This document shows positions 9,120 through 56,901 of a DNA stretch of 64,000 nucleotides, piece by piece. The stretch is from Ginglymostoma cirratum (Eukaryota), in assembly GCA_024137785.1 (NCBI GenBank), contig JAHRHZ010000078.1, positions 21,247,216 through 21,311,215 of the forward strand. The letters are read 5' to 3'. Below the pieces are notes generated by a model. That model saw only the letters and a program-made list of their open reading frames with translations. It was not told the origin of the DNA and ran no database searches. Made by a program: the position numbers and the translations under genes. Within the stretch, counting starts at the first letter, position 1. Each line of letters begins with the position of its first letter.

Positions 9120-12100
9120 TGAAATAATGCCACAGAGGCTGGTATCCCATCACCAGGTCACTTTTTATTTATTCATGGAAAGTCCTTGACATTGATCCAG
9201 CTCCCACAGAGCTAGTTCTCAGAGTGAACAGGATGTCTGACACTCCTGTTTTTCTGTCAGCTGGGGCTCCCTCATAGGACCAGATTAACAGCCCCAATCA
9301 GGGAACTCATATTAGAACATCGAACAGTACAGCACAGTACAGGCCCTTCAGCCCACGATGTTGTGCCAAACTTTTACCCTAATCCTAAGGTCTATCTAAC
9401 CTCCACCCCTACCTTATAATATCATCCATATACCTATCTAATAGCTGCTTAAATGCCCCTAATGAGGCTGACTCCACTACCCTCTCAGCAATGCATTCCC
9501 CACTCCTACCACTCTCTGAGTAAAGAACCTACCTCTGATGTCTCCCCTGTATCTACCTTCACTCATTTTAAAACTATGCCCCCTCGTAATAGTTATCTCC
9601 ACCCTAGGAAAAATTCTCTGGCTGTCTACTCTATCTATACCTCTGATCGTTTTGTACACCTCTATCAAGTCACCTCTCATCCTTCATCGTTCTAAAGAGA
9701 AAAGCCCTAGCTCTCTCAACCTTTCCTCACAAGACCTTCCCTCCATTCCAGGCAACATCCTGGTAAATCTCCTCTGCACCTTTTCCAACGCTTCCACATT
9801 TTTCCTGTAATGAGGTGAACAGAACTGGACACAATACTCCAGATGTGGCCGAACCAGGCTTTTGTATAGCTGGAGCATAACTTCACGGCTGTTGAACTCG
9901 ATCCCTCTATTAATGAAAGCTAACACATCATACGCCTTCTTAACAATTCTATCCACCTGGGTAGCAGCTTTCAGGGAACTGTGAACATGAACCCCAAGAT
10001 CCCTCTGCTCCTCCATACTGCCAAGAATCTTTCCGTTAACCTTGTATTCTGCTTTCAAGTTTGTCCTTCCAAAATGAATCACCTCACACTCTTCAGGGTT
10101 AAACTCCATCTGCCACTTCTCAGCCCAGCTCTGCATCCTATCAATGTCCCGTTGTAACCTACAACAGCCCTCCGCATTGTCCACAATGCGACCCACTTTC
10201 GTATCGTCCGTGAACTTTCTAGTCCACCCTTCCACTCCTTCATCCAAATCATTTACAAAAATCACAAATAGAAGAGGACCCAGGACAGATCCTCGTGGTA
10301 CACCACTCGTAACTGAGCACCATGTTGAATATTTTCCGTCCACTACCACCCTTTGTCTTCTAAGGGTCAGCCAATTCTGAATCCAGTCTGCCACACTTCC
10401 CCCTATCCCATGCCTCCTTACCTTCTGCATGAGCCTACCATGGGGTACCTTATCAAATGCCTTACTTAAATCCATGTATACCACAACCACTGCTCTACCT
10501 TCATCCACGTGTTTGGTCACCTCTTCAAAGAATTCAGTAAGATTTGTGAGGCATGATCTACCCCTCACAAATCCATCCACTATCACAAATCAAACTGTGC
10601 CTTTCCAAGTAATCAGAAATCCTATCTCTCAGAGCCCTTCCCAATAATTTGCCCACCACTAATGGAAGACTAACTGGCCTGTAATTTCCAGGGTTATCCC
10701 TATTCCCTTTTTTGAACAAGGGAATGACATTTGCCTCTCTCCAATCTTCCCTCACCATACCCGTGGACAGTGAGGACGAAACGATCATCGCCACAGGGCC
10801 TGCGATCTCTTCCCTCACTTCCTATAGAGTTCTTGGATAAATCCCATCAGGCCCAGGGGACTTATTTATCTTCAACTTCCTCAAATTTCCTAGCACATCT
10901 TCCCTACTAACATCGACCTCCTCTAGCCTACCAGCCTGTTTCACATTGTCCTCCTCTACAACTAAGTCCCTCTCAGTTATGAATACCGAAGAAAAGTATT
11001 CATTAAGGACCTCTCCTATCTCTTTAGGCTCTGGGCACAAATTCCCTTCACAATCCTTGATGGGCCCTACCCTTTCTCTGGTCATTCTCTTATTCCTTAT
11101 GTGCATGTAAAAAGCCTCGGAGTTTTCCTTGATCCTATCTGCCAAGGTTTTCTCATGTCTCCTTATAGCTCTCTTAAGCTCTTTCTTCAGCTCCTTGCTG
11201 GATAACTTGTATCCCTCTAGAGCCTTTTCCGTTCCTTGTTTCCTAAACCTTACATAAGCATGCTTCTTCCTCTTAACCAGTCGTTCAACCTGTCTTGAGA
11301 ATCAAGGCTCCCTCACTCGACCGCATCTTCCCTGCCTGCTAGGGACAAACACATTGAGCACATGCAGAATGTATTCCTTAAACAATCTCCACATTTCAAT
11401 AGTGCTCTTCCCTGACATCATCTGTTCCCAATTTATGTTAGCCAGTTCTTGCCTAACAGAATTGTAATTACCCTTCCCCCAATTATAAACCTTACCCTGC
11501 TGTATGTACCTATCTTTTTCCATGACTATTGTAAAAGTAACAGAGTTATGATTGCTACCACCAAAATGCTCTCCTACCAATGGGTCTAACACTTGGCCCG
11601 GTTCATTACCAAGCACCAAATCCAAAGTGGTCTCTCCTCGTGTTGGTCTATCTCCATACTGTGTCAGGAATCCTTCCTGAATGCACTGGATAAAATCCGC
11701 TCCATCTAAATTATTACAACTAAAAATTTTCCAATCAATATTTGGAAAGTTGAAGTCACCCATGACTACAACCCTGTGACTTCTGCACCTTTCCAGTATC
11801 TGCCTCCCAATTCACTCCTCTACTTCTCTGCAACTATTAGGGGGTCTCTAAAAAGCCCCAACAAAGTGACTGCTCCTTTCTTGTTCTGGACCTCAACCCA
11901 AACTGACTCTGTAGACATATCGTTCTTGAACTGCCTTTCAGTAGCTGCTATATTAACCCTGACTAGCAATGCCACTCTCTCACCTCTTTTCCCACCCTCC
12001 CTATTTCTTTTAAAGCATCTAAATCCTGGAACTCTCAACAACCATTCCTCTCCCTGAGTTACCCAAGTTTCTGTAATGGCCACAACATCGTAGTTCCAAG

Positions 12101-12769
12101 TACCGACCCATGCTCTAAGTTCATCCGCCTTATTTCCGACACTTCTAGCATTGAACCATCACTGTGCTCACAATTATGGTCCATTGACCGCATTTCTTTA
12201 GAAACAACCTCACTCCCTGTTGTGTCCATTGGAAGGCTGAATACCTCATCCTCTGAATTATAAATCCGGTTCCTCACCCCCTGCCAATCTAATTTAAACC
12301 ATCCCGTATAGCTCGAGCAAACCTCCCTTCCAGGATATTCGTGCCCTTCCAGTTCAGGTGCAACCTGTCTTTACTGTACAGGTCCCACCTTCCCCAGAAT
12401 GTGCCCAATTATCCACATAATGGAAGCCCTCCCTCCTACACCAGTCCTGTAGCCACGTGTTTAGCTGCACTCTCTCACTATTTCATACCTCGTTATCACG
12501 TGGCACTGGTAGTAATCCAAAGATAACTACCCTGTTTGTCCTGGACTTCAACTTCCAACCTAACTCCCTGTACTCGTTTTTCACATTCTCTGTCCTTTCT
12601 CTACCTATGTCATTTGTACTGATGTGTACCATTACTGCTGGTTGCTCACCCTCCCCCTTAAGAATCTTGAAGACACGATCCAAGACATCACGGACCCTGG
12701 CACCCGGGGGGGCAACATACCATCCAATTTTATGAGGTCTATCTGGCTGACCTCATTACAATCACTTCA
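9120..12769 (-). mobile_element. Short solo-LTR-like element split by a CR1 insertion (parts 9120-9312 and ~12728-12769)
   Basis: TG...CA termini, AATAAA near the minus-strand 3' end, flanks atggg/ttggg (5-bp TSD, 1 mismatch). The two halves join across the CR1. Confidence 0.55.
9313..12727 (-). mobile_element. Near full-length CR1 LINE (ORF1 esterase remnant + APE endonuclease + RT), frameshifted
   Basis: ORF pieces: VHISTNDIG (CR1 ORF1 SGNH esterase), AITETW, MGDFNFPNIDW, KSPGPDGIYPR, YMDLSKAFDKVPH, SVLGPLLF, FTDDTK, RPHLEYC; 3' tail at 9313. Confidence 0.95.
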
Positions 12770-26749: not shown

Positions 26750-27045
26750 CTGGGAAAGTCCGCTGCCTGCTCGCACACATTCCATTTCTCCCGATAATCA
26801 AATCTTGCCCAGACAAACTCGCCTACGGTCCAGTCAGTTCGAAACAGAAAGTGTTTTCAGAAGCCCGAAGGAAAACGGGGAGCGCCAGCTGTGTTCTTTG
26901 CCTTCACCAGTTCAGACAGCCAGCAGGAGACTGTTTCACTGTTTGCACTTAGACAAGAGAACGGGGCGCAGGGAACTTCGCCGCTTTTGTGCCGATATCT
27001 CGGAATCGTTCTCAGAATTGTCAAGGCGTCCGATTATAAATGGTG
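26750..27045 (+). promoter_or_regulatory. Putative promoter of paralog A (kB-like, ISRE, GAS, TATA)
   Basis: GGGAAAGTCC 26752-26761; GAAACAGAAAGT 26841-26852; TTCTCAGAA 27009-27017; TATAAAT 27035-27041; locally CpG-enriched. Confidence 0.55.
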
Positions 27046-27059
27046 ACTTTCCTTGGATC

Positions 27060-27119
27060 AGATTGAATTTCGGATTAGTGCTGGGCTGGTCGGATTTCCA
27101 CAGATTGTTTGCAACAAAG
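27060..27119 (+). other. Putative non-coding exon 1 of paralog A (start uncertain)
   Basis: Donor caaag|gtacag is conserved in paralog B at 52895. The leader exon has an acceptor upstream of its ATG, so an upstream exon is needed. Confidence 0.55.
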
Positions 27120-28024
27120 GTACAGTTTGATGTTCAAAAACTATAAGAATATTTTTATTGACAGTTGTGCGAAGTGTGTGAACACTGGATACAATATAAC
27201 TGCAGAAACTGATCAGATTAGGGGATTGCTTTTTAAAAAATGAAACAAAACAGAAATGGAAACAGATTTTTTAAAAGAAATAAAATATCCTATCAATTGT
27301 CGCAATGCCTACGGAGTTTACAAAAAAAAATAAGAATTTACGGAAAAAAAATCACGACGACCAGGAATTTGTCTGTAGATCTCTGCACGGGAAAGCGGGC
27401 AGCTACAAAAAAAAAGGAAAAGTCCAAAATGTAGTTTATTGCTCTTTGGAACTCCACTAGTGAGGAATACTTACTTTGCAATTTGTATGAGGAAGCTACA
27501 GCTGCAGATGCTGGAGTCAGAGATAACACAGTGTGGAGCTGGAGGAACACAGCAGGACAGGCAGCATCATAGGAGCAGGAATGTTGAAGTCTTGGGTCGG
27601 GACCCTTCTTCAGAAATGGGTTTATATTTGTAATTTGCATGATTGCTTTATACAGGACAGAGTAATAGATTTCGGACGCAGTACCTTCTCATTGTGAGCA
27701 GTAGTGAGCTCCTCACTGATTTCAGATATGCACCAAACCTCCAAAATAAACACAGAGAATACTGGACAACGTCAGTGGGTCTGGCAGCATCTGTAGAGAG
27801 AGAAGCGGAGCTAACGTTTCCAGACTGGTACAACTCTGGTCATACCTCCAGAAGCTGGTTTTGCCCTGCAGGATGAGGTCATGTCTTGCAGACGGCGTTT
27901 GCAAAACCTAAACCTCTATCATCGACAGTCTCTGGGTTAAAATCTTAAAAGTTAAGCTCCAGCAGCCAGTATAACTATTTAGAAATATTCAAAGATTGTT
28001 CACGTGAGTCTGACATGGGTGGTG

Positions 28025-29335
28025 GGCGAGTTGTTAGAGGGAATCCTGAGGGACAGAATTTACATGAATTTGGAAAGGCAAGGACTGTTTAAGGAAAGTC
28101 AACATGGCTTTGTGCGTGGTAAATAGTGTCTCACTAACTTGATTGAGTTGTTTACTGAAGTAATGAAGAGAACTGATGAGGACAGAGCAGTGGACATGAT
28201 TTATATAGACTTTAGTAAGGTGTTTGACAAGGTTCCTCATGGTACACTGGCTGGCAAGGTTACAGCACATGGAATACAAGGACAACTAGCCATTTGGATA
28301 TAGGACTAGCTTGAAGGTAAAAGATAGAGGCTGGTGGTGGAGGCTTGCTTTTCAGACTGGAGACCTGTGACCAGATATGTGCCACAATGATTGGTGCTGG
28401 GTCCACTGTGTTTTAACATTTATGTAAATGATTTGGATATGAACATAAGAGGTGTGATTAGAATGTTTGCAAATGTCATAAAAATTGGAGGTGTAGTGGA
28501 CAGTAAAGAAGGTTATCTCACAGTACAATGGGATCTTGATCAGATAAATGTGAAGTGCTGCATTTTGAAAAGACAAATCAGGGCAGAACTTATACACTTA
28601 ATGGTAAGGTCCTGGGGAGTGTTGCTGAACAAAGAGACCTTGGAGTGCAGGTTCATAGTTGCTTGAAAATGGAGTCACAGGTAGATAGGATAGTGAAGAA
28701 AGTGTTTGGTATGCTTGCCTTTTTTCGTTCAGTGTAGCAGTTAGGAGGTCATGTTGCAGCTGTATAGGACATTGGTTAGGCCAGTTTTGGAATACTGCAT
28801 GCAATTCTGGTCTCCCTACTATAGGAAGGATGTTGTGAAACTTGAAAGGGTTCAGAAACGATTTGCAAGGATATCGCCAGGGTTGAGTGTTTGATCTGTG
28901 GGAGAGGCTAGATAGACTGGGGCTATTCTTCTCGGAGCGTCTGAGGCTCAGGCGTAACCTTATAGAAATTTATAAAATCATGAGGGGCATGGATAGGACA
29001 AATAGCCAAGGTCTTTTCCCTGGGATGGGGGACTCCAAAACTAGAGGGCATAGGCTTAAAGTGAGAGGAGAAAGATATAAATGGGACCTAAGGGGCAACT
29101 TTATCACACAGAGGTGGTTTGTGTATGGAAGAAGCTGCCGGAGGAAGTGGTGGAGGCTGATACAATAACAACATTTAAAAGACATCTGGATGGTTATATG
29201 AGTAGGAAGAGTTTAGAAGGATATGAACAAAATGCTGGCAAATGGGACTAGATTAATTTAGGATAATTGCTCGGCATGGGTGAGTTGGACTGAAGGAACT
29301 GTTTCCGTGCTGTACAACACTATGACTCTATAACT
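28025..29335 (+). mobile_element. 5'-truncated CR1 in intron 1 of paralog A
   Basis: RT motifs (DFSKxFDKVPH, VLGPLCF, EQRDLGVQVH) and tail tatgactctataactc; not seen at the equivalent site in paralog B. Confidence 0.9.
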
Positions 29336-30181
29336 CAAAATGAACTACAAATGCTTTGGGATGTTTAAACATGTCCTTCCTAATTGCTCATGATTCTTTA
29401 TTCTGTAAGTAGATGAGCAATAGAGAGAGCAGGATAATCTGGAGTTTACTCCTGATTTAACCAGTATTGTATTATCAGTTCAACTGAGAGGGAAATAAAC
29501 CCAACACTAAGTTCAGAACTTTAATTTATCTTTCACTGAAATTATGGTAATATCTGTGGGAATCACCAAATTTGGAGTCTACATATCAGGACGTTCAAAA
29601 TGATTGATGGTTATTTGGATTTAGACATCTCAGCACATGATATGGAGGCAGGATGTCCGATCCAGGATCAGACCATCCTTAGGTCTCGGATAGGATAACA
29701 CCAGGCTCTGAGTCAATGCTGCAGCCTTGTCAAGTCCCTGCCCAACTTAAAAGCCAAACCCATCAAACAGGGGCAGCTGGAAAGGGTCGGGGTGTTGGGG
29801 GGAAGTGGCCTGGCAACAAGACACCCTCTGTGGACTGAAAATGTCATTCAGCACATATGGAAATCTGCAATCTGAGCCAAACACTGCCCATCTCAGTCAA
29901 GTTTGAAGCCATGGCATTATTGCAGTGTCTCTTGCTATACTGTTTGATCGGTGATACATTCCAGAATTCTTGCTGTGAGAGTGGTTGGCATCTGCCACAA
30001 AAACATGTAAGTTATACACTACCATATAATAATTATGAGCATTCAAACCATTTCTACCAATGTAAATATATCTGATGGACTGGTTGTTAGTCATTAACAT
30101 TAATGAAAGAAATCTGATGCATAAATAAAGTGAAATCAGGTTAGGTTAACGTGTTTTCTGTATTATCCCTTAACAGGTGAA

Positions 30182-30260
30182 ATGAGTCTGGAAATGGTTT
30201 CATGCCATACAATACGTCTTCTTCCTGTCATCTTCTACATCCTTCCATCATTGTCAGACG
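30182..30260 (+). CDS. B7-like paralog A, signal-peptide exon (MSLEMVSCHTIRLLPVIFYILPSLSD; the ATG at 30194 is the one conserved in B)
   Basis: Acceptor taacag| at 30176, donor |gtaagt at 30261, phase 1, hydrophobic leader. Confidence 0.85.
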
Positions 30261-30351
30261 GTAAGTTCTAAGATGCTTTTCAACAAATAGCTCTATAGAA
30301 TACTGATTCCCACTGAAGGAATGTGAGTCAATGAAAATTATTGTTTTTCAG

Positions 30352-30666
30352 GTTTTTTGGATTTATTTTGTAACTCTCCGGTGACAGGAATATTTAACAA
30401 AGACACTAAACTACTGTGCACAGTCACTTCACAAGAGGATTGGAACTTGACAGACATTGTACTATGGAAACAGAAAGATGTAGAAGTGTTTAACTACAAG
30501 AAAAGTGTCAATGAAGTTCAGGGTCGGATTAAATTACTTCATTCAGGATCTCAAGAGATATTACTGGTGATCCAGAACACACAGTTGTCAGATAGTGGGC
30601 AATATCAATATTATTTGCAGACAACTGTTGGTCACAAAAGTGCTGACATCAATTTGAAGGTTAAAG
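30352..30666 (+). CDS. B7-like paralog A, IgV exon
   Basis: 315 nt, phase 1-1, tttttcag|...|gttggt. V-set motifs: B-strand LLC, C-strand W, GRI, LVIQNTQLSDSGQY, G-strand LKVK. Confidence 0.9.
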
Positions 30667-31379
30667 GTTGGTGACTGTATTCTTTTCTTGATATTATAGA
30701 TGTTCGTTGCAAGTACTTCATAACAAATTCCAGTTTTGTTCTCATTTTAAAAGTGAATAGGTGCAGGAATAAATGATTCAGGCCATCAAGCCTACTCCAA
30801 TTTTCAGTGCGATGTTATTTGACCATGGGCTGCAGCTCCACTGCCTTGCTCGCTCCCTCAAAATCTGTCAGTCTTAAATGCATTCAACAATGGAGCATCC
30901 ACAACCCTCTGGGTTGAAGAAAGTTTACAAAGTTTACAACCCTGTGAATGAATCATTTTCTCCTCAAATCAACCTTAAATTAGTTTACCTGAAACTGTGC
31001 CACTATGTTTTACATTCCCTGACTGGCAGAAACAATCTCTCTACAGCTATCATGTAAAGCCCCTTCAGAATCTTGTATGTTTCAATGAGATCACCTCTCA
31101 CTCTTCTAAACCCCATTAATGAACAGTAATATAAGCCCAATTCACTCAATTTCTCATCATAGGACAGCCCCTCCCATTCCTGCAAATAATCTTGTGAATG
31201 TTCCGTCTAATGTAACCAATGCAAGTATGTCTTCTGGGGAAGAGAAATCCACACTCCAATGACCATTTGAGAGAAAAAAAATTCTCCTCATCTCTGTCTT
31301 AAAAGAGAGATCGCTTATTCTCAAACTACGGCAGAAACATCCTCTAGGAATCTAACCTTTTCAGTCCCTTTTAGATCTT

Positions 31380-32950
31380 CTGTGGGCAGAATTTCATAGG
31401 GGTCTGAACAACATGGGCTACAATGAGATGTGTGATATAATCAGGTCCATGTTGATGTCGGAAGCAACTTGTACCATCTTTGATGCTTTTCACAAGTGCC
31501 ATTTCGAGAATCTTATTTGGTAAAGATGAGTTGCCAATTGACATGTTAAATGCCCAATTAATGCCACAAATTGAATCATTAATATTCAGCCTCCCATCAT
31601 ACCAAACCCACAAATCAAGCTCGATGCCTGGAAAAATCAACAAGGAATCCCGAGCATCTGGTGGAGCAACTGGTGGAGCCAGTTGCCTGCTCTGAGTGGT
31701 CTCCATGTTAGAAACTGGGTGCCAATTTCTCAGGCATGCTCCATGGGGGCTGGGCACATGCAACTCACATCTGCAGACATTGGCAATTTTCACGTGCCAG
31801 CTTCTAAGAACCTTCATGGCCCATCTCCTGTGCACTAATAGGATGCTTCTACTATTCAGTGATGCAGCTTGGGTAACTTCAGTAGCTCTCATTGTAATGC
31901 TGCAACAGTGGCACTCTGCTCAGGGAAACACATCCAGCTCATGGCCTGGGCTAGGCTGCACCTCAGGCCTGTTTGCTTGCTGTCATTGCAATCATTGACT
32001 GAACCTACCTGGATGCTTATAACTTCCCAGCTTGCATTGCCTGATCTTCCTTGTTACATTTTGTCCCTTCAGCCAGAGAAACCAGGCTCACAGTATTGCA
32101 AACTTACCACATCTTTAGTACCAAGGAGCCAGGGAACTTGTTCTTGTCAGCAAGCCTCAGTCAAGTCAAGAAGGATAGCCTTGTTTCAGGTGTTCCCAGC
32201 ATTGTAAATCATGGACAGCCTCTGCTACTAGTCCAGACCCTGTTCAGGGCAGTCAGAATGAGATCGTCTCCTCATTAGTACACCGTCTGTCTTGATTCTT
32301 TCTTCCCTGCTGTGGGCTGTTTTCCTCATGGAATGAGAGGGAGGCAGATATTAAGGGAGATGAATGTGGGTGGTGCAGTTAATACTGTTGATGAAAGTGG
32401 GTAGGTGGCCCATGTAAGTGAGTCAGCAGCACACCAAGCACACTGGCTTAGTGATGTCAGGGCTTGGGGTTGGGGAAGGTGAGTGGGCAAGATGTTGCAG
32501 ATTGTGAGAGTGGGGCTAGAGCATGAGCTGTAGTGGTGATGGGTGAATGGTTGGTGGGAGAGGTGGAGGTAGAGTAGCAGAGATACAGTGAATGTGAGAT
32601 ATTGGAGACATGTTAGTGGCCTTTCTGCTGGCGGAGTGGAGAGGAACATTAACCATCTTCTTACACTGCTGGACCTTCCACGAGGCTGCTGAGATTGCTT
32701 TAACAAGAACAGCAATCTTCAACCAGGCTGGCACAATCAGGGGTCACAGGCTCCACAGCTGGTCATCGAGGAACAAGAAGTCCCAGCAGTGCACCACCCC
32801 ATCCAGCAGGAGCTCCTGGACACTCTCCAAAAAAGAGGCCAATGATTACTGTCTATTTGAAAACTCCAAGGTAAATGTCAGGAACCATGCAGGGTAGCTC
32901 CAGACTGATAGTGCTTATCTGAATGCACAATGGGCTTTTAAAGATTGCAT
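31380..32950 (-). mobile_element. Degenerate Harbinger-type element (Myb/SANT ORF remnant) in the V-C intron of paralog A
   Basis: Minus strand ELLLDGV...WLKIAVLVKAIS...QQCKKMVN resembles 38543-38821; absent from the 0.8-kb intron of paralog B. Confidence 0.5.
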
Positions 32951-33019
32951 TGGTGCAAGGGATGTTGGTGAATTCCGGGATATCCAGTGAATGGCAAGTT
33001 GTTCCGGGAAAAGTATATT

Positions 33020-34375
33020 TTACAATGGGGCAGGAAATTAATCAACCAACATTTGGATAGTCATGGTCTGATTAGCAATAGTCAGCGTGGATTTGTGTGC
33101 AGAAAGTTGTGTCTGACAAATCTTTTAGAGTTTTTCGAAGAGGTAACCAAGAGGATAGATGAGGGTAGGGCAGTGGATGTTGTCTATATGGACTTTAGTA
33201 AGGCCTTTGACAAGGTTCTGCATGGCAGGCTGGTCATGAAAGTTAGGTCGCATAGGATCCAGGGAAAGCTAGCTAATTGGATTCAAAATTGGCTCTATAT
33301 TAGGAAGCAGAGGGTGATAGTTGAAGGTTGTTTCTTGGATCGGAGGCCTGTGACTAGTGGTGTGCCATAGGGGTAGGTGCTGGGATCTTTGTTATGTGTT
33401 ATTGACATAAATGATCTGGATATGAATGTACAAGGCATGATAAGTAAGTTTGTGAATGATACAAAATTAGAAGGTATCGTTGATAGCAAAGAAGGTTATC
33501 AAAATTACAGAGGGCTCTTAATCAGATGGGGAAGTGAGCTGAGGATTGGGAAATGCAGTTCAATACAGATAAGCGTGAGGTGTTGTACTTTAGAAAGTCA
33601 AACCAAGGTAGGACTTATACAGTGATGATAAGGTCCTGAGGAGTGTTTTGGAACAGAGGGACCTAGGAGTTCAAGTACATAGTTTGCTGAAAGTGGTGTC
33701 ATATGTGGACAGGATGGTAAAGAAGGCATTTAGCATGCAGGTCTTCATCGGTCGAGGCACTGAGTACAGGAGTTGGGACGCTGTGTTACAGTTGTATAAG
33801 TCATTGGCGAGGCCACACTTGGAGTATTGTGTACAGTTTTGGTCACCCTGTTATAGAAAAGACATAGTTAAACTGGAAAGTGTGCAAAGAAGATTTACGA
33901 GGATTGTAGTCCTACAAGGACTAGTAGATCTGAGTTATTGGGAGAAGTTGGCCAGGATAGGACTTTATTCCTTGGAACATAGGAGAATGAGGGGTGACCT
34001 TATTGAGGTGTATAAAATCATGAGGGGTAGTGATAGGATGAATTCATATAGCCTTTTTCCCAGGAATAATGAATTGAAAACTAGACAGTATAGGTTTACG
34101 GTGAGAGAGGATAGAGGATAGGACCTGAGGGGCAACTTCTTCATGTAGAGAGTGTTGAATATATGGAATGGGCTGCCAGAGAAACTGGTTGAGGCAGGTA
34201 CAATAGCAACATTTAAAAAAAAACATTTGAATAGGTACATGGATGAGAAGGGTTTAGAGGGATATTGACCAAATGTGGGCAATTGGAACTAGCTGAGTGA
34301 GCACTATGGTCAGCATGGACTAGTTTGGGCCAAAGGGCTGTTTCCATGCTGTATTACTCCATGACTCAATGACTT
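33020..34375 (+). mobile_element. 5'-truncated CR1 in the V-C intron of paralog A
   Basis: CLTNLLEFFEEVT, YMDFSKAFDKV, RPHLEYCVQFWSP, tail atgactcaatgact. Confidence 0.92.
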
Positions 34376-34872
34376 GATGAATGTTTGTGATGCCACAGAA
34401 GCAGGATACCTAATTAATGTGATGAGTTTACTAAGATACTGCAAGGAAACCTATTAGTCTTATGGTGAGAAATCCTCCAAAAAATTTGACATATCCCAAA
34501 GTTAACCAAAAAAAGGATTCAGTCCTATGTTTCAACAGGATAACCTCTCACTTCTCTAAACAGCAATGGATTTATGTCCAACCAGTTCAAACTTGCTTCA
34601 CAAAATAAGCCCTTTACTTCAAGAATGAATGATAATCACTCTTCCAACAACATAATTTTGCTGCTAAACTGTGCCAGGAAACAACTGACTAGACAAATGG
34701 TGATAGTGGCATAGTGACCATGTTTATTGGATGAGAATTCCAAGAGACCCATGTTAACCTCAGTGATTATGGGTGAAAATCCCACTCTAACAACTGGTAG
34801 AATTTAACTTCATTTTCTAAATCTGAATTATGAAGCTCATTCCACTAATAATAATGCAATCATCATTTTTAG

Positions 34873-35157
34873 CTCCATACAACATGATTGTTTTCCCAAA
34901 CATCGTATCGTCGAGAATAGTCAGTGTCACTTGTGAAGCAACTGGATATCCACCGGGTCGGATGCACTGGTTCTTGAACACAAAAACGAACCTCACATCC
35001 AATGCTAATATTAGTATTGAAGAAACACCACAGGGACTGTACAAGATCAGCAGCACACTTCAAACCGAGGAAGAAATAGAAACCCCAGAAGGTGTTTATA
35101 CTTGTGCCATGTGGAGCATAGATGACAGTAAATATGAGGTGAAGAGAAATATTTCAT
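34873..35157 (+). CDS. B7-like paralog A, IgC exon
   Basis: 285 nt, phase 1-1, tttttag|...|gtaagt. APYN...VTCEATGYP...HW...GLYKISSTL...YTC. The V-C junction LKVK|APY is typical of the B7 family. Confidence 0.9.
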
Positions 35158-35691
35158 GTAAGTTCACCACATTTATGCTTGAAAGGATTTTGGAAAGTAC
35201 ATATTTAAAGAATTAATATGTTTCATTTATTTGCAAATATGGATCATATTGCAAAATCATACTTATTACTCAAGACTATTTTACGCTGAGAACTTGTGGA
35301 ACATTATTTTTAAATTATTGCAGTCCTTTTCCTCACTGTTGTTTAAAGGTCAACTTTGTTATTGTAATGAACAGAGTCGTAGTTGGGTATATCTATGCCC
35401 AGCCCAATCAGAATCTACGTGGCTGGGCTGAGAATTAAGATTGATCATTAATTATTCATGCTGTAGCGCCAGGTTAGCTACGACCCAAATAATCAGCACC
35501 GTCTTCTCATTCTATACAAAATGTATAAAATGAGGTTTTATTGTACTTTACAAATCTGTTTATTGCAACCTAGTTCTAAGGAGTACAAGATGAAAAACTA
35601 CAACTCTTAGTCTCATCTTAGCAATATTGTAGTTCTATTCTACCAAGCATTTAATTAATTAAATATTTCTCACTCACGTTTTCTGTTGCAG

Positions 35692-35835
35692 TCTCTCATT
35701 CAAATTCTACCTCTGCTGAGAGTTCTGGAAAGGAAAGGAAAAATGCTTTCGTAATTGTCCCTGTGATTACAGCATTACTTCTTGTTGCATTAGTAATCTC
35801 TGCTGTTCTGCAATTTAGGAAAAGATCGCATGCAG
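35692..35835 (+). CDS. B7-like paralog A, stalk + transmembrane exon
   Basis: 144 nt, ttgcag|...|gtatga. SHSNSTSAESSGKERKN-AFVIVPVITALLLVALVISAVLQF-RKRSHA. Confidence 0.88.
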
Positions 35836-36764
35836 GTATGATGGTTTTGGATTCTGGTTCCTTTTAAAACTCTTGATTAATACATAAATTATGACTTTTT
35901 TTGCTTTAAACACATCTTATGATCCCTTATTTCAATTATGCTTATAATCAGGAAACCAATGCACTTTAACCTCATTATGTGACAACTGTACAAGTTTCAA
36001 GGCAAAATAAAAAGAAGTAACAGAATCTCCAACATTCTAAACTGTTTTAAATTCTGTCCATCCTAATTTCCTTGCTAACATTTTGCAACTTATATAAGCA
36101 CTTGGCTGAATTATTGGAAAACAAATACTCTTATATTACTGCTGAGGAAATGTTTGCTGAATAATTTGCTAAATAGTTTGAAATGTAGAGATATTTCAAG
36201 CTATGAACATTGCCTAATTAGTTACAATCTTTGATCAAAGAAAGAATAGATAATATATAAATGTCGTATGAGCCAAACATTCACTCTCCCTGAGCTCCCA
36301 CAATGTTCTAAAATTAACTGTAGCCTTCTTATTACGTATGCTGATATAAGTCACTTTAAAGCAAAATCTCAAATCAAATTCTCCCACTGTGAATGGGAAT
36401 TTATAATTCCAAATTGCTAGTTCAGATACTAGCAACTTGGTAACATAATAATTATGATACTGTGGCCTCCTAATCAAATTAGAGAACTACAACTTTATAC
36501 GTTGACTGATTGCAATTGTCTTGGAACCATTTGGTTATAAAATTATTCTTAGTGTTACACAAAGGAGAGGCGCAAAATAAGTTGGTAAAATTTAATTTTT
36601 ATGACTGTTATTGTGATCATCCAGAGATTATTGCCTCTTCCATGATTGAGTTTGGAACCAAAAAAATTAATAAACTGCAAATTTTTGCAGCAGTTTAAGA
36701 TAGTTCAAAACAATTGCTATATGCCAGAAACAATGTATTAATTGTTGTATTGCTTTAGTTTCAG

Positions 36765-36886
36765 AAATTACAAAAGAATCTGAAACCCTGATGCTAAGTT
36801 TAATTACAAATACCTGCACATTTTTGAAAGTCTTCTATCACAGTTTTTATAAATCATATTTTCTTCTTTTAACATATGACAATTGA
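36765..36886 (+). CDS. B7-like paralog A, cytoplasmic exon with retained last intron (EITKESETLMLSLITNTCTFLKVFYHSFYKSYFLLLTYDN*); full protein ~310-314 aa
   Basis: Acceptor tttcag| at 36764. The ancestral donor reads ctaagt (36794) and the ancestral acceptor reads aacat (36875). The frame is open to TGA 36884-36886. Confidence 0.6.
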
Positions 36887-37684
36887 CCAGAGACCTAATG
36901 TTTGATAGCAGTTGCAGAGATTAATTCTTATTTCTACTTGCAGCAAGTCCACTGATGGCAGCAACTTTAAGAAAACATGATACGATATAGCAACCAAATC
37001 CTATCTTATGTGAATGAGGGAAGATGAATTTAAACCATGAGTTATTTCACATACTGTCACTTCCTGTATTATGATCACTTCAAAACTGATTTTAATGCAG
37101 CTCTCGTCCAGAAAAATACACCAACTGTTTTATGGCATTGGACTGAACTCTTCACTAATCCTTTCTCTGCAAAGAAACAATGCTTCACATTAGTTTTCTA
37201 TGGACACCATCAGCCAAACACAGTGTTCAAATGCAAAAGTCTACATGCTGAAGAACTTGGCTTTCAATCCAGGCTCGTGTTTGTCAAGAAGATCCCTATT
37301 TTGCAGCAGAGGTAAAAATTGGATCAATCACAGTGCGCTGGGAAAGGAAAAGAATATTTTCAACACAGTTAACTCTGAACATCTACTTGTGGTTTTCTTA
37401 CAGACATACTGTGAATGGTTTTGACTGTTGGACTGTATTTCTCACTTGGGTTAAGAGGAATCGTGGCTGCAGGAAATTAACTTGAAAAACTGAAATTTCA
37501 GTATTTTCTGAATTGTAAACACTGATCATTATGTTTGTACACTAATTACTTTAAATCACTGATTTAGCTGAATAACACATGTATATACATTTTTGTAAAG
37601 TATTAATTAATTTTTGCTGTGCCCTTGTTTTGTGTTAACAGATAATGTAAAACAAATGTAGATCTCCTGAAGTTTAATAATGAG

Positions 37685-39115
37685 CAGGCAAAATCTTACC
37701 AGGCTGTAAACAATATGGGTTGTGGCAAGTTGAGTATTAGGATCAGTCAAGATGGTCATCTCAATGTCGAGATCATCTTGCTACAACCTTTTCCCTTTAT
37801 CAAGCAGCATGGCAGGATCCTTGCCTGGGAACAGCGAGTTCCCGGTTGACAATGTCCATTGCTTGTTATATAACTTGTCGACAGCCCAGACCATCATGGG
37901 ATGTGATCTTACCAAATTTGCTGCACAAATTGGCCTTCAGGAAAACTTGCCATGGAAACCAGAGTAGGTTCTTGGTGGGTTTGACTGGCTACTGGCTCCA
38001 GACGATCTGTGTGAGCAATGAATGGTTCCTCCAGTGCTTCCCTGATGATTTGGAGAAGTCAAGGAGTTGTCCTCTGTTGAGGATGGGACTGGGTGCTGGG
38101 GGGAAATTAATTCATCTGCAGGACATAAGATGCAGAAGGCATTACAGCCAGTGGTTTGTTGTGTTCGATGCCTGGTTAATGCGACTCTTGTGCTGGAATG
38201 ACAAGTTTTACTTCCTTCTGGACTTGTCAACCCCACAGAAGCGGTCCGTTTTTTCTCCTGCTAGATTGAGAATTCTTTCCTTGGAACAGGTGAAGACATG
38301 CACATCTGGTACTTCCCTCATTGTGTGGCTTCACTCAGCCCTGTTATGGGATGTCTTCTTCTGTAATGACATAAAGGAGCAAATTAATTAGAATCAAGTG
38401 GCTGGCACAACTTTTGGGGCTGGTGCACTTGAGGAAAGTGAGGAGTTCCAAGGGAGTGCGGGATTGGTGGTGTATGAGGTTGGTTGGGTAATGAGAGCTC
38501 GTGAGAGTAGATGTTGTATGCATCACAAGGTTAAGCAGAGCATTAGAGTTGGTGGGAGGTGGTGGGGGGGGGGGAAGTGGCCCAGTTATATGAGAGGTAG
38601 CTCACCCTGGAGGATTGGAAAAGATCATTGTCCTTCTTCCTGCACTGTTGCCTAATTCTCATCAATCTGGAGATGTCACTGATCCAGGTGCTCATCTTCG
38701 ACCAGCTGGCATAGTGCAGTGACTTGACTTCATCTTCTCTCTTTGAGAAAAGGACACCTCCACTGTTCATCATCCCATCCGCAAGGACCTTCAGGTCCCT
38801 GTCCGACATGTGTGGTGCCACTTCCTCCTTCTCTGCCCTCTTTCCTGGCTTCTAATATTGCAATCAGGACAAGTTCCAGATGGCAGCATTCCTGCAGGTA
38901 TATAGCAGGCTTTGAAAGATGGCACTGTCCAAAGGATGCTGGTCTTATGGAAGACATCGCTGAGTGGCAAGTTCCTGTGTGAACAGTGCATGGTAAGATG
39001 GTGCGAAATCCGATATGAATCTCACTACAAAGGCTCAAATGGCAATAAAGCAGTAAGCTTGGTATGATATGGCAAGAAAACTTGCTGGGATTCGCAGTGA
39101 AATTCATTCTGCCAA
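37685..39115 (-). mobile_element. Harbinger-type element remnant with Myb/SANT-like ORF (38543-38821)
   Basis: APHMSDRDLKVLADGM...VLF...W..MSTWISDISRLMRIRQQCRKKDNDL matches the Myb/SANT-like trihelix pattern of the Harbinger accessory protein. Confidence 0.65.
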
Positions 39116-42440: not shown

Positions 42441-43431
42441 ATCAAGTTGAATTGAACTATTAATCACAGAAAACTGTTTAAAATCAGTGGAGGCTATTTA
42501 AATACATGCAGGAAATCACAGATGGATGGGAATTATTATGTGACTAAGTCAACGGAAGACAGCTTGGAAATACACTAGCCAACAACTAACAGTTGATCAT
42601 GCACCCTGCAAATGAAAGAAATATTCAATAATGATTGTGCATGAGGATACTTCCAGAGCAACCAAAGTATAAGGTGAATCCAAAGGAGTGATGTCATTAG
42701 TAGTATAATCACTGAGAAGAGATGTCCCACTAGAAGCTCGGAGGTAGTAGGAACTGCCAATGCTGGAGTCAGAGACAACACAGTGTGGAACTGGAGGAAC
42801 ACAGCAGGCCAGGCAGCATCAGAGGAGCAGGAAAGCTGACATTTCGGGTTGGGACCCCTCTTCAGAAGAATGTTCCTCCAGCTCCATACCGTGTTATGTC
42901 CCACTAGAAGCTGCTTGATCTTGATCAGATCAGGTCTAATTGGTCTGTGGTAAACATAGTCTGACCATCTCGTGTTGCTATATGTTTTTGTTTGAGTACA
43001 CACAAATCAATTGTTTCATTTTCTTCCAATCGCCTTACTATAATAAAAATTGCTTGACTTACAACGTATTTTGTCAGTTAGAATTCTCGATCTCAGCAAC
43101 CTTACAGAGAGCAGCTCAATAAATCTGAATTGTTGTTGTGGATGTGCTCTTCCAGAGCAGAAAAAGCCATATGGTGTTGAGACTGCTGCTGCTCCAGACT
43201 TCTCTCTTATCCTCTCTTCCAGTGAAAAATTTTAGCCATGTGGGAAGATTTGATAAAATGACACTGTTTTGTTTGGGACAGCAAAGGATGAATAAAGATT
43301 TAATTAAAGTGTATGAAATTATGTGGAGTCAAGATAAACTGCAAAGCAAGGATCTATTTCACTTAGTGGTGATGCCAATAATTCAGGACATAGGTTCCAC
43401 GTAACGTACAGAAAGATTAACTTGTAACAAA

Positions 43432-46248
43432 CATAGAGCATGGATCAGTACTTGGGGCTATGATGCTGTGGCCATTACAGAGACTTGAATAACACAGGGG
43501 CAGGAATGGTTGTTGGACGTTTCGGGGTATAAATGTTTCAAAAGAAATAGGGAGGGAGGTAAAAGAGGTGGGGGAGTGGCATTGATAATCGGGGATGGTA
43601 TCACAGCTGCAGAAAGGGAGGTCATCGGGGAGACTTTGTCTACTGAGTCAGTATGGGTGGAAGTCAGAAACAGGAAAGGAGCAGTCACTTTATTGAGAGA
43701 GTTTTCTATGGACCCCCAGTAGCAACAGAGACACTGAGGAACAGATTGGGAGGCAGATTGTGGAAAGGTGCCGAAGTAATATGGTTATTGTCGTGGACGA
43801 CTTTAACTTCCCTAATATCTACTGGAACCTCCCAAGTGCAAATAGTTTGGATGGAGCAGGTTTTGTCAGGTGTATTCAGGAAGGATTTCTGACTCAATGC
43901 GTAGATACGCCAACTAGAGGAGAGGCGATATTGGATTTAGTGCTTGGCAACGAACCTGGCCAGGTGTCAGATCAGTGGGCGAAGGTTTCGATGACGGTGA
44001 TCACAACTCCCTGACCTTTACTATAGTCATCGAGAGGGATAGGAGCAGACGGTATTGGAAAGTATTTAATTGGGGGAGGGGGAACTATCATGCTATTAGG
44101 AAAGAACTGCAGAGAATAAATTGGGAACAGATGTTCTCAGGGAAATGCAAGACAGAAATGTGGAGGTTGTTTAGGGAGCACTTGCTACGAGCTCTGGATA
44201 GGTTTTTCCCATTGAGGCAAGGAAAGGATGGTAAGGTGAAGGAACCTTGGATGACAAGACATGTGGAACAGCTAGTCAAGAGGAAGAAGGAAGCTTATTT
44301 AAGGTCGAGGAAGCAAGGATCGGACAGGGCTCTAGAGGGTGACAAGGCAGGCAGGAAGGAACTGAAGAATGGACTTACGAGAGCTAGAAGGGGGCATGAA
44401 AAAGCCTTGGTGGGTAGGACTAATGAAAACCCCAAGGCATTCTATATGTATGTGAGGAACAAGAAGATGGCCAGAGTGAGGGTAGGACCAATCAGGGATA
44501 GTGGAGGGAACTTGTGTGCGAAGTCAGAGGAGGTAGTTGAAGTCCTTAATGAATACTTTGTTTTAGTATTCACCAGTGAGAGGGACCTTGACATTTGTGA
44601 GGACAGCATGAAACAGGCAGATATGCTCCAACAAGTTGATGCTAGGCAGGAGGATATGCTACAAAGTTTGAAAAACATGAGGATAGACAAGTCCCCTGGG
44701 CCAGACGGGATACACCCAAGGTTATTATGGGACGCGAGGAAAGAGATTGCTGCCCCTTTGGCAATGATCTTTGCGTCCTCACTGTCCATTGGAGTAGTAC
44801 CAGATGATTGGAGGGTGGAAATGTCATTCCCTTGTTCCAGAAAGGGAATAGGGATAATCCTGGGAATTACAGACCAGTCAGTCTTACTTCTGTGGTGGGA
44901 AAAGTATTTGAGGATTCTGAGAGACAGTATTTATGATTATTTGGAAAAGCACAGTTTGATTAAAAATGATCAGCATGGCTTTGTGAGGGGCAGGTCATGT
45001 CTTACAAGCCTTATTGAATTCTTTGATGATGTGACAAAACACATTGATGAAGGTCGAGCAGTGGATGTGGTGTATACAGATTTTAGCAAGGCATTTGATA
45101 AGGTTCCCCATGGTAAGCTAATTCAGAAAGTAAGCAGGCATGGGATGAAGGGACATTTGACTCTCTGGACACAGAATTAGCTGTCTAATAGAAGATAGAG
45201 AGTGGTAGTAGATGGAGAGTATTCAGCTTGGAGCTTGGTGACCGTGGTGTTCTGTTGAGATCTGTTCTGAGACCTCTGCTCTTTGTGATCTTTATAAATG
45301 ACTTGGATGAGGACTTGGAAGGGTGGGTTAGTAAGTTTGCTGATGACACGAAGGTTGTTGGAGTTGTGGCAGCGTGGAGGGCTGTTGTAGGTTGCAACAG
45401 GACATTGACAGGATGCAGAGCTGGGCAAAGAAGTGGCAGATGGAATTCAACCCAGAAAAGTGTGAAGTGATTCATTTTGCAAGGTTGAATTTGAATCCAG
45501 GATACAGGGTTCAAGGCAGAATTCTTGGCAGTGTGGAGGAACAGAGGGATCTTGGGGTCCACGTTCATAGATCCCTCAAAGTTGCCACCCAAGTTGATAG
45601 GGTTGTAAAGAAGCCGTATGGTGTGTGGGCTTTCCTAGGCAGGGTAACTGAGTTTAAGAGCCTCAAGGTTATGCTGCAGCTCCATAAAACCCTGGTTAGA
45701 CCACACTTGGAATATTGTGTTCCGTTCTGGTCATCTCACTATTGGAAGGATGTGGAAGCTATAGAGAGGGTGCAGAGGAGATTTACCAGGATGCTGCTTG
45801 GACTGGAGGGTGGGTCTTTTGAGGAAAGGTTGACGGAGCTAGGGCTTTTCTCATTGGAGCAAAGCAGGATAAGAGGTGACTTGAGAGAGGTGTACAAGAT
45901 GATGGGAGGCATAGATATAGTGGATAGCCAGAGACTTTTTCCCAGGGTGGAAAGGCTATTATGAGGGGGCATAATTTTATGGTAATTGGAGGAAGCGAGA
46001 GGGGAGATGTCAGAGGTAGGTTCTTTACACAGAGAGCGGTGGGTGCATGGAATGCACTGCCAGTGGTGGTAGTGCAGTCGGATACGTAGGGACATTCAAG
46101 CAACTCTTGGATAGGCAAATGGATGATAGTAAAATGTAGGGTATGCAGGGTAGGTTGATCTTAGAGTAGGATAACAGGTTGGCACAACATCATGGGCCAA
46201 AGGACCTGTATTGTGCTGTACTGTTCTATTTTCTATGTTCTATGTTCT
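43432..46248 (+). mobile_element. CR1 LINE, almost entire ORF2 (EN+RT), with a few stops/frameshifts
   Basis: AITET, DFNFPNI, KSPGPDGIHPR, QHGFVRGRSCLT, FADDTK, RPHLEYC; tail (ttctatg)n. Confidence 0.95.
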
Positions 46249-47238: not shown

Positions 47239-48495
47239 AGAGATAGTAGGAGCTGCAGCTGCTGGAGAATCTGAGATAACAAGGTGTAGAGCTGGATGAA
47301 CACAGCAGGCCAAGCAGCATCAGAGGAGCAGGAAAGCTGACGTTTCGGGCCTAGACCCTTCTTCAGGAAGGGGGAGGGGAAGGGGGCCACCCAAAGGTTG
47401 CAGGAACAGCACCTCATATTCCTCATATCCCTCACACCCCGGTCCCGCAATAATAACCAAAAAAGACTCCCCCTCATCCTCACGTACCACCCCACCAACC
47501 TCCGGATCCAACGCATCATCCTCCGACACTTCCGCCATCTGCAATCCGACCCCACCACCAAAGACATTTTTCCCTCCCCACCCTTATCTGCTTTCTGGAG
47601 GGACCACTCCCTCCACGACTCCCTTGTCCGCTCCACACTCCCCTCCAGCCCCACCACACCCGGCACTTTTCCCTGCAACCGCAGGAGGTGCTACACCTGC
47701 CCCCAACACCTCCTCCCTCACCCCAATCCCAGGTCCCAAGAAGACATTTCACATCAGGCAGATGTTCACCTGCACATCTGCCAATGTGGTATACTGCATC
47801 CGCTGTACCCGTTGTGGCTTCCTCCACATCGGGGAAACCAAGCGGAGGCTTGGGGATCGCTTTGCAGAACACCTGCACTCAGTTCGCAACAAACAACTGC
47901 ACCTCCCAGTCGCGAACCATTTCAACTCCCCCTCCCATTCCTCAGATGACATGTCCATCCTGGGCCTCCTGCAATGCCACAGTGATGCCACCCGAAGATT
48001 GCAGGAACAGCAAATCATATTCAGCCTGGGAACGCTGCAGCCCAATGGTATCAATGTGGATTTCACAAGCTTCAAAATCTCCCCTCCCCCAACTGCATCC
48101 CAAAACCAGCCCAGCTCATCTCCGCCTCCCGAACCTGTCCTTCCTCTCACCTATCCCCTCCTCCCACCTCAAGCCTCAGCCCCATCTCCTACCTACTAGC
48201 CTCATCCCTCCCCTTGACCTGTCTGTCCTCCCTGGACTGACCTATCCCCTCCCTAACTCCCCACCTATGCTCACCTTTACTGGCTCCATCCCACCTCTTT
48301 GACCTGTCTGTCTCCTCTCTATCTATCTTCTCCTCTATCCATCTTCTATCCACCTCCCCCTCTCTCCCTATTTATTTCAGAAACCCCTTCCCCTCCCCCA
48401 TTTCTGAAGAAGGGTCTAGGCCCAAAACGTCAGCTTTCCTGCTCCTCTGATGTTGCTTTGCCGGCTCTGTTCATCCAGCTCTACACCTTGTTATC
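47239..48495 (+). mobile_element. 5'-truncated Penelope-like element (GIY-YIG end + pLTR, with inverted pLTR at the 5' end)
   Basis: NVVYCIRCTRCGFLHIGETKRRLGDRFAEH (GIY-YIG). Perfect 15-bp TSD AAGGATGGCAGTTTC at 47224-47238 and 48496-48510. Confidence 0.93.
47339..47366 (-). ncRNA. Minimal type I hammerhead ribozyme motif in pLTR
   Basis: Minus strand CUGAAGA-A-GGGU(CUAG)GCCC-GAAAC-GUC: intact core, helix II and palindromic ACGU helix III. Confidence 0.7.
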
Positions 48496-52529: not shown

Positions 52530-52830
52530 CCGGGTGGGGATATTCCGGGAAGTGCTCAACAGTGAGTTCTCTTTTCCGACAAGGAAATTTGTTAATGTCA
52601 ATAATTCAATCATCATATCGAAACTAAAAGTTTTAAACCAAGGACGAATCAGCTGCTCGCGCACTTTGCTTTGATAAATTGTAATGTACAGAAGAACAGT
52701 GTAATTCGATTTCGTTTGCTCTCACACAAGACAACAGGAAAGTTGTGATCTTCCCCAGACCCGGCAGTGGATCGAGCCCTGAGCTGTACTTGTTCCTGGG
52801 ATCACCTGTGCTGCTTTTATGTCGACACCG
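52530..52830 (+). promoter_or_regulatory. Putative promoter of paralog B
   Basis: kB consensus GGGATATTCC (52537-52546) overlapping GAS TTCCGGGAA (52543-52551); degenerate ISRE GAAACTAAAAGT (52620-52631); CpG-enriched. Confidence 0.55.
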
Positions 52831-52834
52831 AGAT

Positions 52835-52895
52835 CAGTTTGAACCTCGATTTAGCGCTGAGCTGGTTAGATCTCTACATATTGCTTACATCAAAG
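52835..52895 (+). other. Putative non-coding exon 1 of paralog B (start uncertain)
   Basis: Homologous to 27060-27119; donor caaag|gtacag. Confidence 0.55.
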
Positions 52896-54680: not shown

Positions 54681-55263
54681 TGGTTATTGGGTTTGGACAT
54701 CCCAGCCAGGATATGGAAACAAGATGTCCAATCCAGGATCAGACCATCCTCAGGTCCAAGATAGGGCAACCCCAGGCTCTGAGTCACTGCTGCAATCTTG
54801 TCACGACTCCGTCTAACCTAAAGCCAAACCTGTCGAATAGGGACTGCAGGAAAGGGTGGGAAAGGGTCCTGGCAACAAGACTGCCACTGTGGATTCAAAC
54901 TATCATTCAGCACATATGGAAATCTTCAATCCAAGCCGAGCACTGCCCATGCCTGTCAAGACTGCAGGCTTGGTAACATTGTGGTGTCCTTTGCTATACT
55001 GCTTGCTTAGTCATATATTCCAGAATTCTAGCTGTGAGAATGGTAGGCATCTACTGTAAATACACGTGGAACTTTTACACTAATGTGATAATTATAAGCA
55101 TTCAAACCAGTTCTAGCGATGAAAATATACCTGAAGGATTGCTTTTTAGAGCAGCGTTTTATTGATAATAAACATATCAGTAAAGTGAAACTAGGTTTGG
55201 TGAGATTAGTGAAACTTAACATGCTTTCTGTATTATCTCAAAACAGGTGAATTGAGTCTGGAA

Positions 55264-55330
55264 ATGGTTTCATATCGTACGATAAGTCTCCTCCCTGCCA
55301 TCTTATGCATCTTTCTGTCATTTGCACAGT
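55264..55330 (+). CDS. B7-like paralog B, signal-peptide exon (MVSYRTISLLPAILCIFLSFAQ)
   Basis: Acceptor aaacag| at 55246, donor |gtaagt at 55331; 91-nt intron, as in A. Confidence 0.85.
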
Positions 55331-55421: not shown

Positions 55422-55748
55422 GTTTCTTCAGACTAAATTGTCAGTCTTCAGTCACAGGAATATTAAACAAAGAAACTAAACTACCATGTATGTTAACTTC
55501 AGAAACGAGGATCAGTTCAATACACATTGAACTTTGTAAGAAGGAAAAAGATGGAAAAGTAGAAATTGTGTTTACCTCCAGGAAAAGCGTTAATAGAGCT
55601 CAGGGTCGGATTAAATTAGCTCACCCGAGATCTCAAGACATGTCACTGGTAATCCAGAACACACAGTTGTCAGATATTGGGACATACCAATATTCTTTGG
55701 AAACAGATATTGGTCGCAACATTAGTGAGATTACATTGCAGGTTAAAG
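55422..55748 (+). CDS. B7-like paralog B, IgV exon
   Basis: 327 nt, phase 1-1, ttttccag|...|gtgagt; ~54% aa identical to the V domain of A by manual alignment. Confidence 0.88.
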
Positions 55749-56557: not shown

Positions 56558-56901
56558 CTCTATACAACGTGACTATATTCCCAAACATTGTATCAACGAA
56601 AATGTTAAGTGTCACTTGTGAAGCAATTGGATATCCACTGGCTCAGATTCACTCGCTCTTGAATGGAACAAAGAAGTTTACATCCGAGGCTAATACTAGG
56701 AGTATAAAATCAGCAGAGGGACTGTATAAGATCATCAGCACATATCAAATCAAAGAGAAAATAGATGTCTCAGAAAGTAGTTATACATGTGCCGTGTGGA
56801 GCATGGAAGAGGGTCTATATATGGTGCAGAAACGTCTTTCACATAAGTTCACAATGCTTATTCTTCAAAGGAGTTTGGAAAGCAAATGCTTAAAGAATTA
56901 A
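56558..56901 (+). CDS. B7-like paralog B, IgC exon with read-through tail (donor lost at 56843); predicted secreted 245-aa product or incipient pseudogene
   Basis: Acceptor tttttag|; VTCEAIGYP, GLYKIIS, YTC. At the position of A's |gtaagttcac it reads |ataagttcac. Frame open to TAA 56899-56901. Confidence 0.75.

Follow-up and report, generated by a model that had tools for sequence, protein, structure and literature searches.

The disulfide that joins strands B and F is a hallmark of immunoglobulin (Ig) V domains, and two V-set exons in the DNA considered here, a 64,000-nucleotide stretch of the genome of the shark Ginglymostoma cirratum (the window), raise the question of how such a domain is held together when its F-strand cysteine is absent. 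The exon of copy 1 (30352-30666) reads LFCNS..LLC..DSGQYQY and that of copy 2 (55422-55748) reads LNCQS..LPC..DIGTYQY, just as the initial annotation had described. It had also noted a Cys 16 residues before the B-strand Cys, and Cys6 and Cys22 are indeed spaced by 16 in both copies. At the F-strand site, where it had reported the cysteine to be missing, both copies carry Tyr encoded by TAT (30609-30611 and 55691-55693), one transition away from TGT. The position of the C-strand Trp is occupied by Leu in both, a feature that the initial annotation had not mentioned. (Trp38 of copy 1 lies one place off the canonical position and is not conserved.) The canonical B-F disulfide and the C-strand Trp are thus both absent (Tyr86, Leu37); these features are typical of V domains, but they are not required for the fold. 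Both exons match the Pfam V-set family (E 9e-6 for copy 1, E 2.5e-12 for copy 2), and the Pfam matches, the structural model, and its fold matches all give a V-set sandwich with a C' strand and a D-x-G-x-Y corner.

Insight into copy 1 comes from four public runs, which were aligned to positions 29900-37800 and in which GT-AG joints were scored. One run is recorded as polyA RNA; the other three were guessed to be RNA, and their spliced joints show an RNA origin. The features of this gene are as follows:

30177-30260, + strand: leader (signal peptide) exon, spliced to the V exon in four of four runs
30352-30666, + strand: IgV exon, with AG/GT borders, a Pfam V-set match, and spliced reads
30369-30371, 30417-30419, 30462-30464, and 30609-30611, + strand: codons for V residues Cys6, Cys22, Leu37, and Tyr86, respectively
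34873-35157, + strand: B7-type IgC exon with the canonical Cys pair; V-C joint in three of four runs, matches to the CD276 and PD-L2 C domains
35692-35835, + strand: stalk and transmembrane exon; C-TM joint in two of four runs
36944-37671, + strand: last exon, with a short tail, the stop at 36988-36990, and the 3' UTR; joint in one of four runs

A single 2008-nt contig spans all five of these exons with zero differing letters and carries ~450 nt upstream of the leader exon, and the transcript (spliced public reads) carries the Tyr codon where the F-strand Cys would be. The product is ~290 residues long, has four Cys in its ectodomain, and ends in a short tail that lacks tyrosine. It shares 84% identity in V and 87% in C with whale shark P0001, a closeness that suggests a carpet-shark host. 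Its stop codon, which is in the transcript, comes nine codons earlier than that of whale shark isoform X1. (A PDZ-like end of copy 1, D-T-I, was considered and dropped, because it is created by a stop that is absent from the whale shark.) A 29-nt tail exon at 36765-36793, with its counterpart in copy 2 at 59415-59443, keeps its GT donor in copy 2 but reads CT there in copy 1, whose transcript skips it. Both window genes have a type I layout, in which IgV is followed by IgC in a separate exon and the tail is short; the splicing has been observed for copy 1.

The second gene is the result of a tandem duplication: a block at ~24-37 kb is repeated at ~46-60 kb of the window, both V exons lie inside it, and leader, V, C, and membrane exons are found in each copy. 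Copy 2 contains:

55247-55330, + strand: leader exon, with AG/GT borders and an open frame
55422-55748, + strand: IgV exon, with a Pfam V-set match and borders
55439-55441, 55487-55489, and 55691-55693, + strand: codons for Cys6, Cys22, and the F-site Tyr, respectively; the domain has an extra Cys38
56558-56842, + strand: IgC exon, whose donor is AT (56843-56844) rather than GT and whose C-strand Trp is replaced by Ser
57980-58123, + strand: stalk and transmembrane exon, with an open frame and AG/GT borders

An additional Cys is present at the leader junction. Because of the AT donor of the C exon and the Ser in place of the C-domain Trp, copy 2 is either secreted or decaying. Read-through of the C exon is predicted to end after 19 more codons, with a Cys in the added tail, and, judged from the sequence, the product would be a secreted V-C protein. 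Bamboo shark isoform P0193, which belongs to the nearest C-domain relative of copy 2, likewise ends at the C exon. Copy 2 appears to be a mosaic: its V domain groups with P0002/P0006, while its C domain resembles P0005 (73%) far more than P0002/P0006 (28-31%); this pattern suggests that exons may have been exchanged within the cluster.

The identity of ~54% between the two V exons had been offered as an argument against decay. The figure is accurate (54.6%), but the argument fails, because the exons diverge as fast as the introns: the exons are 72-76% identical at the nucleotide level and the flanking non-coding DNA is 76-80% identical. At the divergence seen for introns, chance alone would preserve the three codons with a probability of ~13-18%, and consequently the match between the two copies within the window is not, by itself, strong evidence. 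Between the copies, purifying selection is not measurable (the dN-dS intervals include zero) and positive selection is not shown, as the dN/dS values of 0.72 for V and 1.86 for C are both compatible with neutrality.

Other species provide a different kind of comparison. A first homologue search, in which cysteines played no part in the selection, gave 14 matches, and all 14 combine Cys6 and Cys22 with an F-site Tyr; they come from whale, zebra, bamboo, horn, saw, white, and cat sharks, a sawfish, and a devil ray. This conservation across species is far beyond chance. A profile was also searched against 1.84 billion representatives, and the best 150 of 688 matches were considered. Both Cys are present in every one of the 35 top-scoring domains; 14 of these were used to build the profile, and among the other 21, 19 lack the F Cys. 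The search of other cartilaginous and bony fish that had been proposed at the outset finds the family in sharks, rays, bichirs, and teleosts (named members come from skates, rays, bichirs, milkfish [zgc:174863], characins, carps, eels, mudminnow, and elephantfish), and the idea of a distinct subfamily gains support from these shark, ray, and ray-finned fish homologues with both Cys. No tetrapod or lobe-finned member is present among 30 proteins looked up by name from the best 150 of the 688 profile matches and from word-index searches. In the freely accessible literature, we found no published description of the cysteines of this family or of a fish SECTM1.

For phylogenetic analysis, 64 domains were picked for the presence of the A-strand Cys with the F site left unselected (the set leaves out five of the seven near-identical eel domains and two of the five from Hoplias); because of how they were picked, a count of the A Cys in this set is circular. 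The F-site residues are Tyr in 49, Cys in 6, Ile in 5, Phe in 3, and Leu in 1. All 32 shark and ray domains are without the F Cys, and the six domains that retain it, and thus have three Cys, are from bichir, eels, and mudminnow. Asp precedes G-x-Y in 63 of the 64, and the C-strand Trp has also been lost in the subgroup that contains the window genes. These domains separate from 18 canonical V domains with 97/85 support, over only 112 columns. On the free tree, loss of the F Cys takes two changes, and a single clade is not rejected (p-AU 0.51); one loss and several losses are indistinguishable on this 64-domain tree. In several sharks, the members found in a species lie on one contig, and the locus numbers of two catshark genes are consecutive, indicating that the family forms a cluster in sharks. 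Single-V membrane forms (P0031, P0150, P0178) and predicted forms that end at the C exon (P0193, P0010) are also members. A sister shark subgroup in the same cluster (P0164, P0165, P0167-P0172, P0190) has six or seven V-domain Cys, a cysteine-rich C domain, and a splice form without the C exon. Elsewhere, the hagfish CD276-like protein P0085, which has tandem V domains, carries a Cys 17 residues before the B Cys and another 8-10 residues further up; it keeps the F Cys and has Leu at the position of the C-strand Trp.

How, then, might the two conserved cysteines be used? The model of the copy 1 V domain (pLDDT 82) has strands at residues 2-6 and 18-26, so that strand A ends at Cys6 and Cys22 lies inside strand B. 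Its fold matches include the V domains of CRIg, BTN3A, B7-H6, and PD-L1 (Z 12.6-13.8, rmsd 1.8-2.6, 101-104 residues). In antibody V domains, residue 6 lies opposite the B-strand Cys on the adjacent strand. In four family members built solely of V domains, two or three each (P0017, P0051, P0087, P0162), every domain contributes exactly two ectodomain Cys. The bonding partner is therefore not in a C domain, a Siglec-like link between domains is excluded, and an A-B strand disulfide is likely. On the model, Cys6 of strand A is likely bonded to Cys22 of strand B within the same sheet, in place of the B-F disulfide. The proposal of an A-B replacement in the initial annotation therefore stands as likely, while its other suggestion, that free Cys mediate dimerization, does not stand as a general rule, given the exactly four ectodomain Cys of copy 1 and the two per domain of the four V-only members. 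More than two Cys are present in 24 of the 64 tree-set domains, at positions that are not conserved. In the six three-Cys domains, one thiol must be unpaired or the A Cys must be used otherwise, and the A-B bond is dispensable at least in the middle domain of P0048, which has neither the A Cys nor the F Cys and keeps a single Cys.

Both sequence and structure place these genes closest to B7 members. The best PDB match of the V+C profile is CD276, followed by PD-L1, butyrophilin, and CD80 (single-unit proteins, among the matches listed); the top fold matches for the model of a bichir member are B7-H3, ICOS-L, and B7-H6; and a CD80-like C2-set domain is detected in 8 rows of a 26-row alignment in which just 9 rows include a C domain. 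The family is a rewired variant of the B7 family and the window genes are B7-type, a kinship that had been missed earlier, as had the reach of the family into ray-finned fish with three-Cys members. Taken together, we hold with good confidence that the window contains two tandem, fast-evolving B7-type genes in which an A-B bond replaces the B-F bond and whose products are likely ligands of a lymphocyte receptor.

The region upstream of the two genes is shared as well:

26840-26852, + strand: ISRE-like (interferon-response-like) motif of copy 1 in a likely CpG-rich promoter, aligning with the motif of copy 2
26853-27119, + strand: likely non-coding first exon of copy 1, ending at a GT donor common to both copies
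52619-52895, + strand: ISRE-like motif and likely first exon of copy 2, from the alignment with copy 1

The CpG observed/expected ratio is 0.82 for the likely promoter of copy 1 and 0.79 for that of copy 2, versus 0.25 for the window. The motifs were named by their likeness to the ISRE consensus. Across the window there are 9 ISRE-like matches versus 4.8 expected, and 5 of 100 shuffles reach 9; because this barely exceeds chance, interferon inducibility is a lead only. (GAS-like motifs are present at 27009 and 52543.) In the mechanism we propose, interferon would induce expression of the gene, and the protein would be made in membrane and secreted forms. Copy 1, since its tail has no tyrosine, would signal by way of a partner on T cells or NK cells. 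Within the V domain, Tyr86 and Leu37 would repack the core in place of the lost Cys and Trp, and the order of events may have been a gain of the A-strand Cys followed by loss of the F Cys through a single TGT-to-TAT change.

In the remainder of the window, a Pfam scan of 96 of the 146 long frames (the frames omitted being mostly repeat-derived or N-containing) gives only reverse transcriptase, GIY-YIG, a weak lipase match, and the copy 2 C exon, and family profiles run against the window find these two genes only. LINE-type retroelement pieces with reverse transcriptase and a Penelope-like GIY-YIG repeat lie at 9313-12121, 28004-29335, 33051-34374, 43430-46235, 47300-48300, and 62800-64000; the GIY-YIG repeat has two copies that are 96% identical. 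There is a 400-base gap at ~57146-57546.

Several other explanations have to be weighed against this reading. Pseudogene decay would account for the near-neutral divergence between the copies, for the broken C-exon donor and Trp-to-Ser change of copy 2, and for the early stop of copy 1, but copy 1 is open, spliced, transcribed, and 84-87% identical to P0001, and the cysteine pattern is family-wide, which refutes decay for the pattern; we give this explanation almost no credence. The original contention that the pattern is not decay is accordingly upheld, through the copy 1 transcript and the 14 of 14 shark and ray homologues that share it, and copy 2 alone may be decaying. It is also quite improbable that the two Cys stay free or link two chains as a covalent dimer. 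The third V-domain Cys and the leader-junction Cys of copy 2 are in keeping with such a dimer, as is the odd Cys count of the three-Cys fish members; however, the two Cys are retained as a pair in sharks, rays, and ray-finned fish, at sites that face the core on adjacent strands, the number of Cys in copy 1 is even, and the extra Cys are not conserved in place. Finally, the window genes could be a diverged shark orthologue of a named B7 member (B7-H4, B7-H3, ICOSL, B7-H6, or HHLA2), as the database names PD-L1/2-like, CD276-like, and butyrophilin-like imply and as the best single-domain PDB match of the V exon, a weak one to B7-H4 (E 0.031), would allow. We consider this unlikely. The names differ among close orthologues, which argues that they are automatic; with a 16-sequence V profile, B7-H4 ranks behind CRIg, pIgR, CAR, and others; and the A-Cys domains split from the canonical V domains in a tree that is without shark B7-H3, B7-H4, and ICOSL. 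(PD-L1 orthology was rejected: shark PD-L1, as given in the available part of the supplement of PMC12151841, differs in sequence when compared by eye, with a canonical Y-R-C and no A-strand Cys.) The reading we prefer is that of B7-type genes with an A-B bond.

A tentative extension of the B7-type reading, and one that we would not yet favor, is that these genes are a fish branch of the SECTM1/K12 lineage, in which SECTM1 would be a B7-type protein minus its IgC domain and the shark proteins would bind a CD7-like receptor. Just as tentatively, this branch would predate the split between sharks and bony fish, with a three-Cys stage that persists in bichirs and eels, and would survive in mammals as SECTM1. 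As described in PMC4603632, SECTM1 has invariant Cys38 and Cys55, which are modelled as a same-sheet disulfide, and the motif G-x-Y-x-W-x-L-x-G-x-Q. The initial annotation had missed this earlier proposal of the same arrangement. Comparison was made by published landmark positions, with the conserved region Trp33-Val133 counted from 1. On this numbering, SECTM1 Cys38, Cys55, Gly113, Tyr115, Trp117, Leu119, and Val133 fall at 6, 23, 81, 83, 85, 87, and 101, and the equivalents in the window genes fall at 6, 22, 82, 84, 86, 88, and 103, all seven within 0-2 positions. Both have two N-terminal Cys (at 6/22 versus 6/23), no F-strand Cys, and an aromatic residue at the F Cys site. The single-V membrane forms of the family and its predicted C-exon-terminating forms are also consistent with a SECTM1 link, as is the viral fold search, in which an unnamed entry of 246 residues (TM 0.73) ranks second among at least 500 matches and has the same length as the poxviral SECTM1 homologue (741 nt, that is, 246 codons plus a stop, in the accessible text of PMC8515872).

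On the other hand, several of the landmarks are common to any V domain, and in the motif as published only G, Y, and L match; Tyr stands for Trp, Thr stands for Gly, and there is no Gln, leaving SECTM1 Gly121 and Gln123 unmatched. The Cys spacing is 17 in SECTM1 versus 13-16 in the family, and where the family has Asp before G-x-Y, the mouse Sectm1a primer (PMC3769348, in part) reads His. The window genes are V + C, with single-V forms among their relatives, rather than single Ig domain proteins. According to the passages available from PMC4603632, SECTM1 is absent outside eutherians, no fish homologue was found, and its nearest relative by PSI-BLAST is CD79A. No tetrapod or lobe-finned member is found among the proteins looked up by name, and the window has no CD7-like gene among the 96 frames scanned. 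Unrelated V domains of hagfish and rainbowfish, which retain the F Cys, likewise have a Cys 17 residues ahead of the B Cys, so that an A-strand Cys can arise twice. A SECTM1 sequence was not found via word-index and profile searches (best 150 of 688 profile matches) and was not among the matches listed in PDB sequence and fold searches; the ESM Atlas returned generic V-set clusters and unnamed proteins, with no SECTM1; and a motif scan of viral contigs for the poxviral homologue gave 11 loci, 10 of which translate to the motif and none of which has the cysteine layout. The pattern itself is real, conserved, and transcribed, and SECTM1 is its structural precedent.

A whole fish family has moved the hallmark disulfide of the V domain. 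Because the three-Cys members look like an intermediate step, the path of disulfide exchange can be tested with natural proteins. Automatic names such as PD-L2-like and CD276-like are misleading and can introduce errors into inventories of checkpoint ligands in sharks and fish. Were the SECTM1 link to hold, SECTM1 would be a truncated B7 protein rather than a novelty of eutherians, and co-stimulation by the CD7-SECTM1 pair would date back to the first T cells of jawed vertebrates. In addition, the orphan human co-stimulator SECTM1, which is used in CD7-directed CAR-T design (PMC13223139, in the passages available), would gain a family and an evolutionary history.

Among known systems, the B7 ligands (CD276/B7-H3, PD-L1/PD-L2, ICOS-L, B7-H6, and the butyrophilins) share with the window genes the order leader-IgV-IgC-anchor-short tail, with one exon per domain, and the C domain motif C-x-x-x-G-Y-P-x-x-x-x-x-W. 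They differ in that the window V domain has an A-strand Cys and no F-strand Cys, the window subgroup is also without the C-strand Trp, and the shark and fish family has undergone a tandem, lineage-specific expansion that includes several-V forms with no C domain. Siglec V domains are likewise V-set without the B-F disulfide, but Siglecs use a B-E bond and an inter-domain bond and have no A-B pair. CD2-type V domains have no bond at all, and hence no B-F disulfide, and also have no A-B pair. Within the fish family, milkfish P0091 belongs to the zgc:174863 group and has the C/C/L/Y pattern and the V-C-TM layout. The zebrafish zgc:174863 is described as an unassigned Ig-domain protein enriched in microglia/macrophages during retinal regeneration, in passages of PMC7720500 that are silent on its cysteines and on B7 kinship. 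SECTM1/K12, the ligand of CD7, is an interferon-induced co-stimulator with membrane and secreted forms (PMC3769348, PMC13223139, and PMC8515872, each in the text available). In the accessible portions of the literature it is unlike the window genes in its single Ig domain, its spacing of 17, His for Asp, its G-x-Q motif, and its description as eutherian-only; it is like them in its two Cys at ~6 and ~23, for which a same-sheet disulfide has been proposed, in its aromatic F site (PMC4603632), and in its pairing of membrane and secreted forms (PMC8515872), of which the secreted form is a prediction for the window genes.
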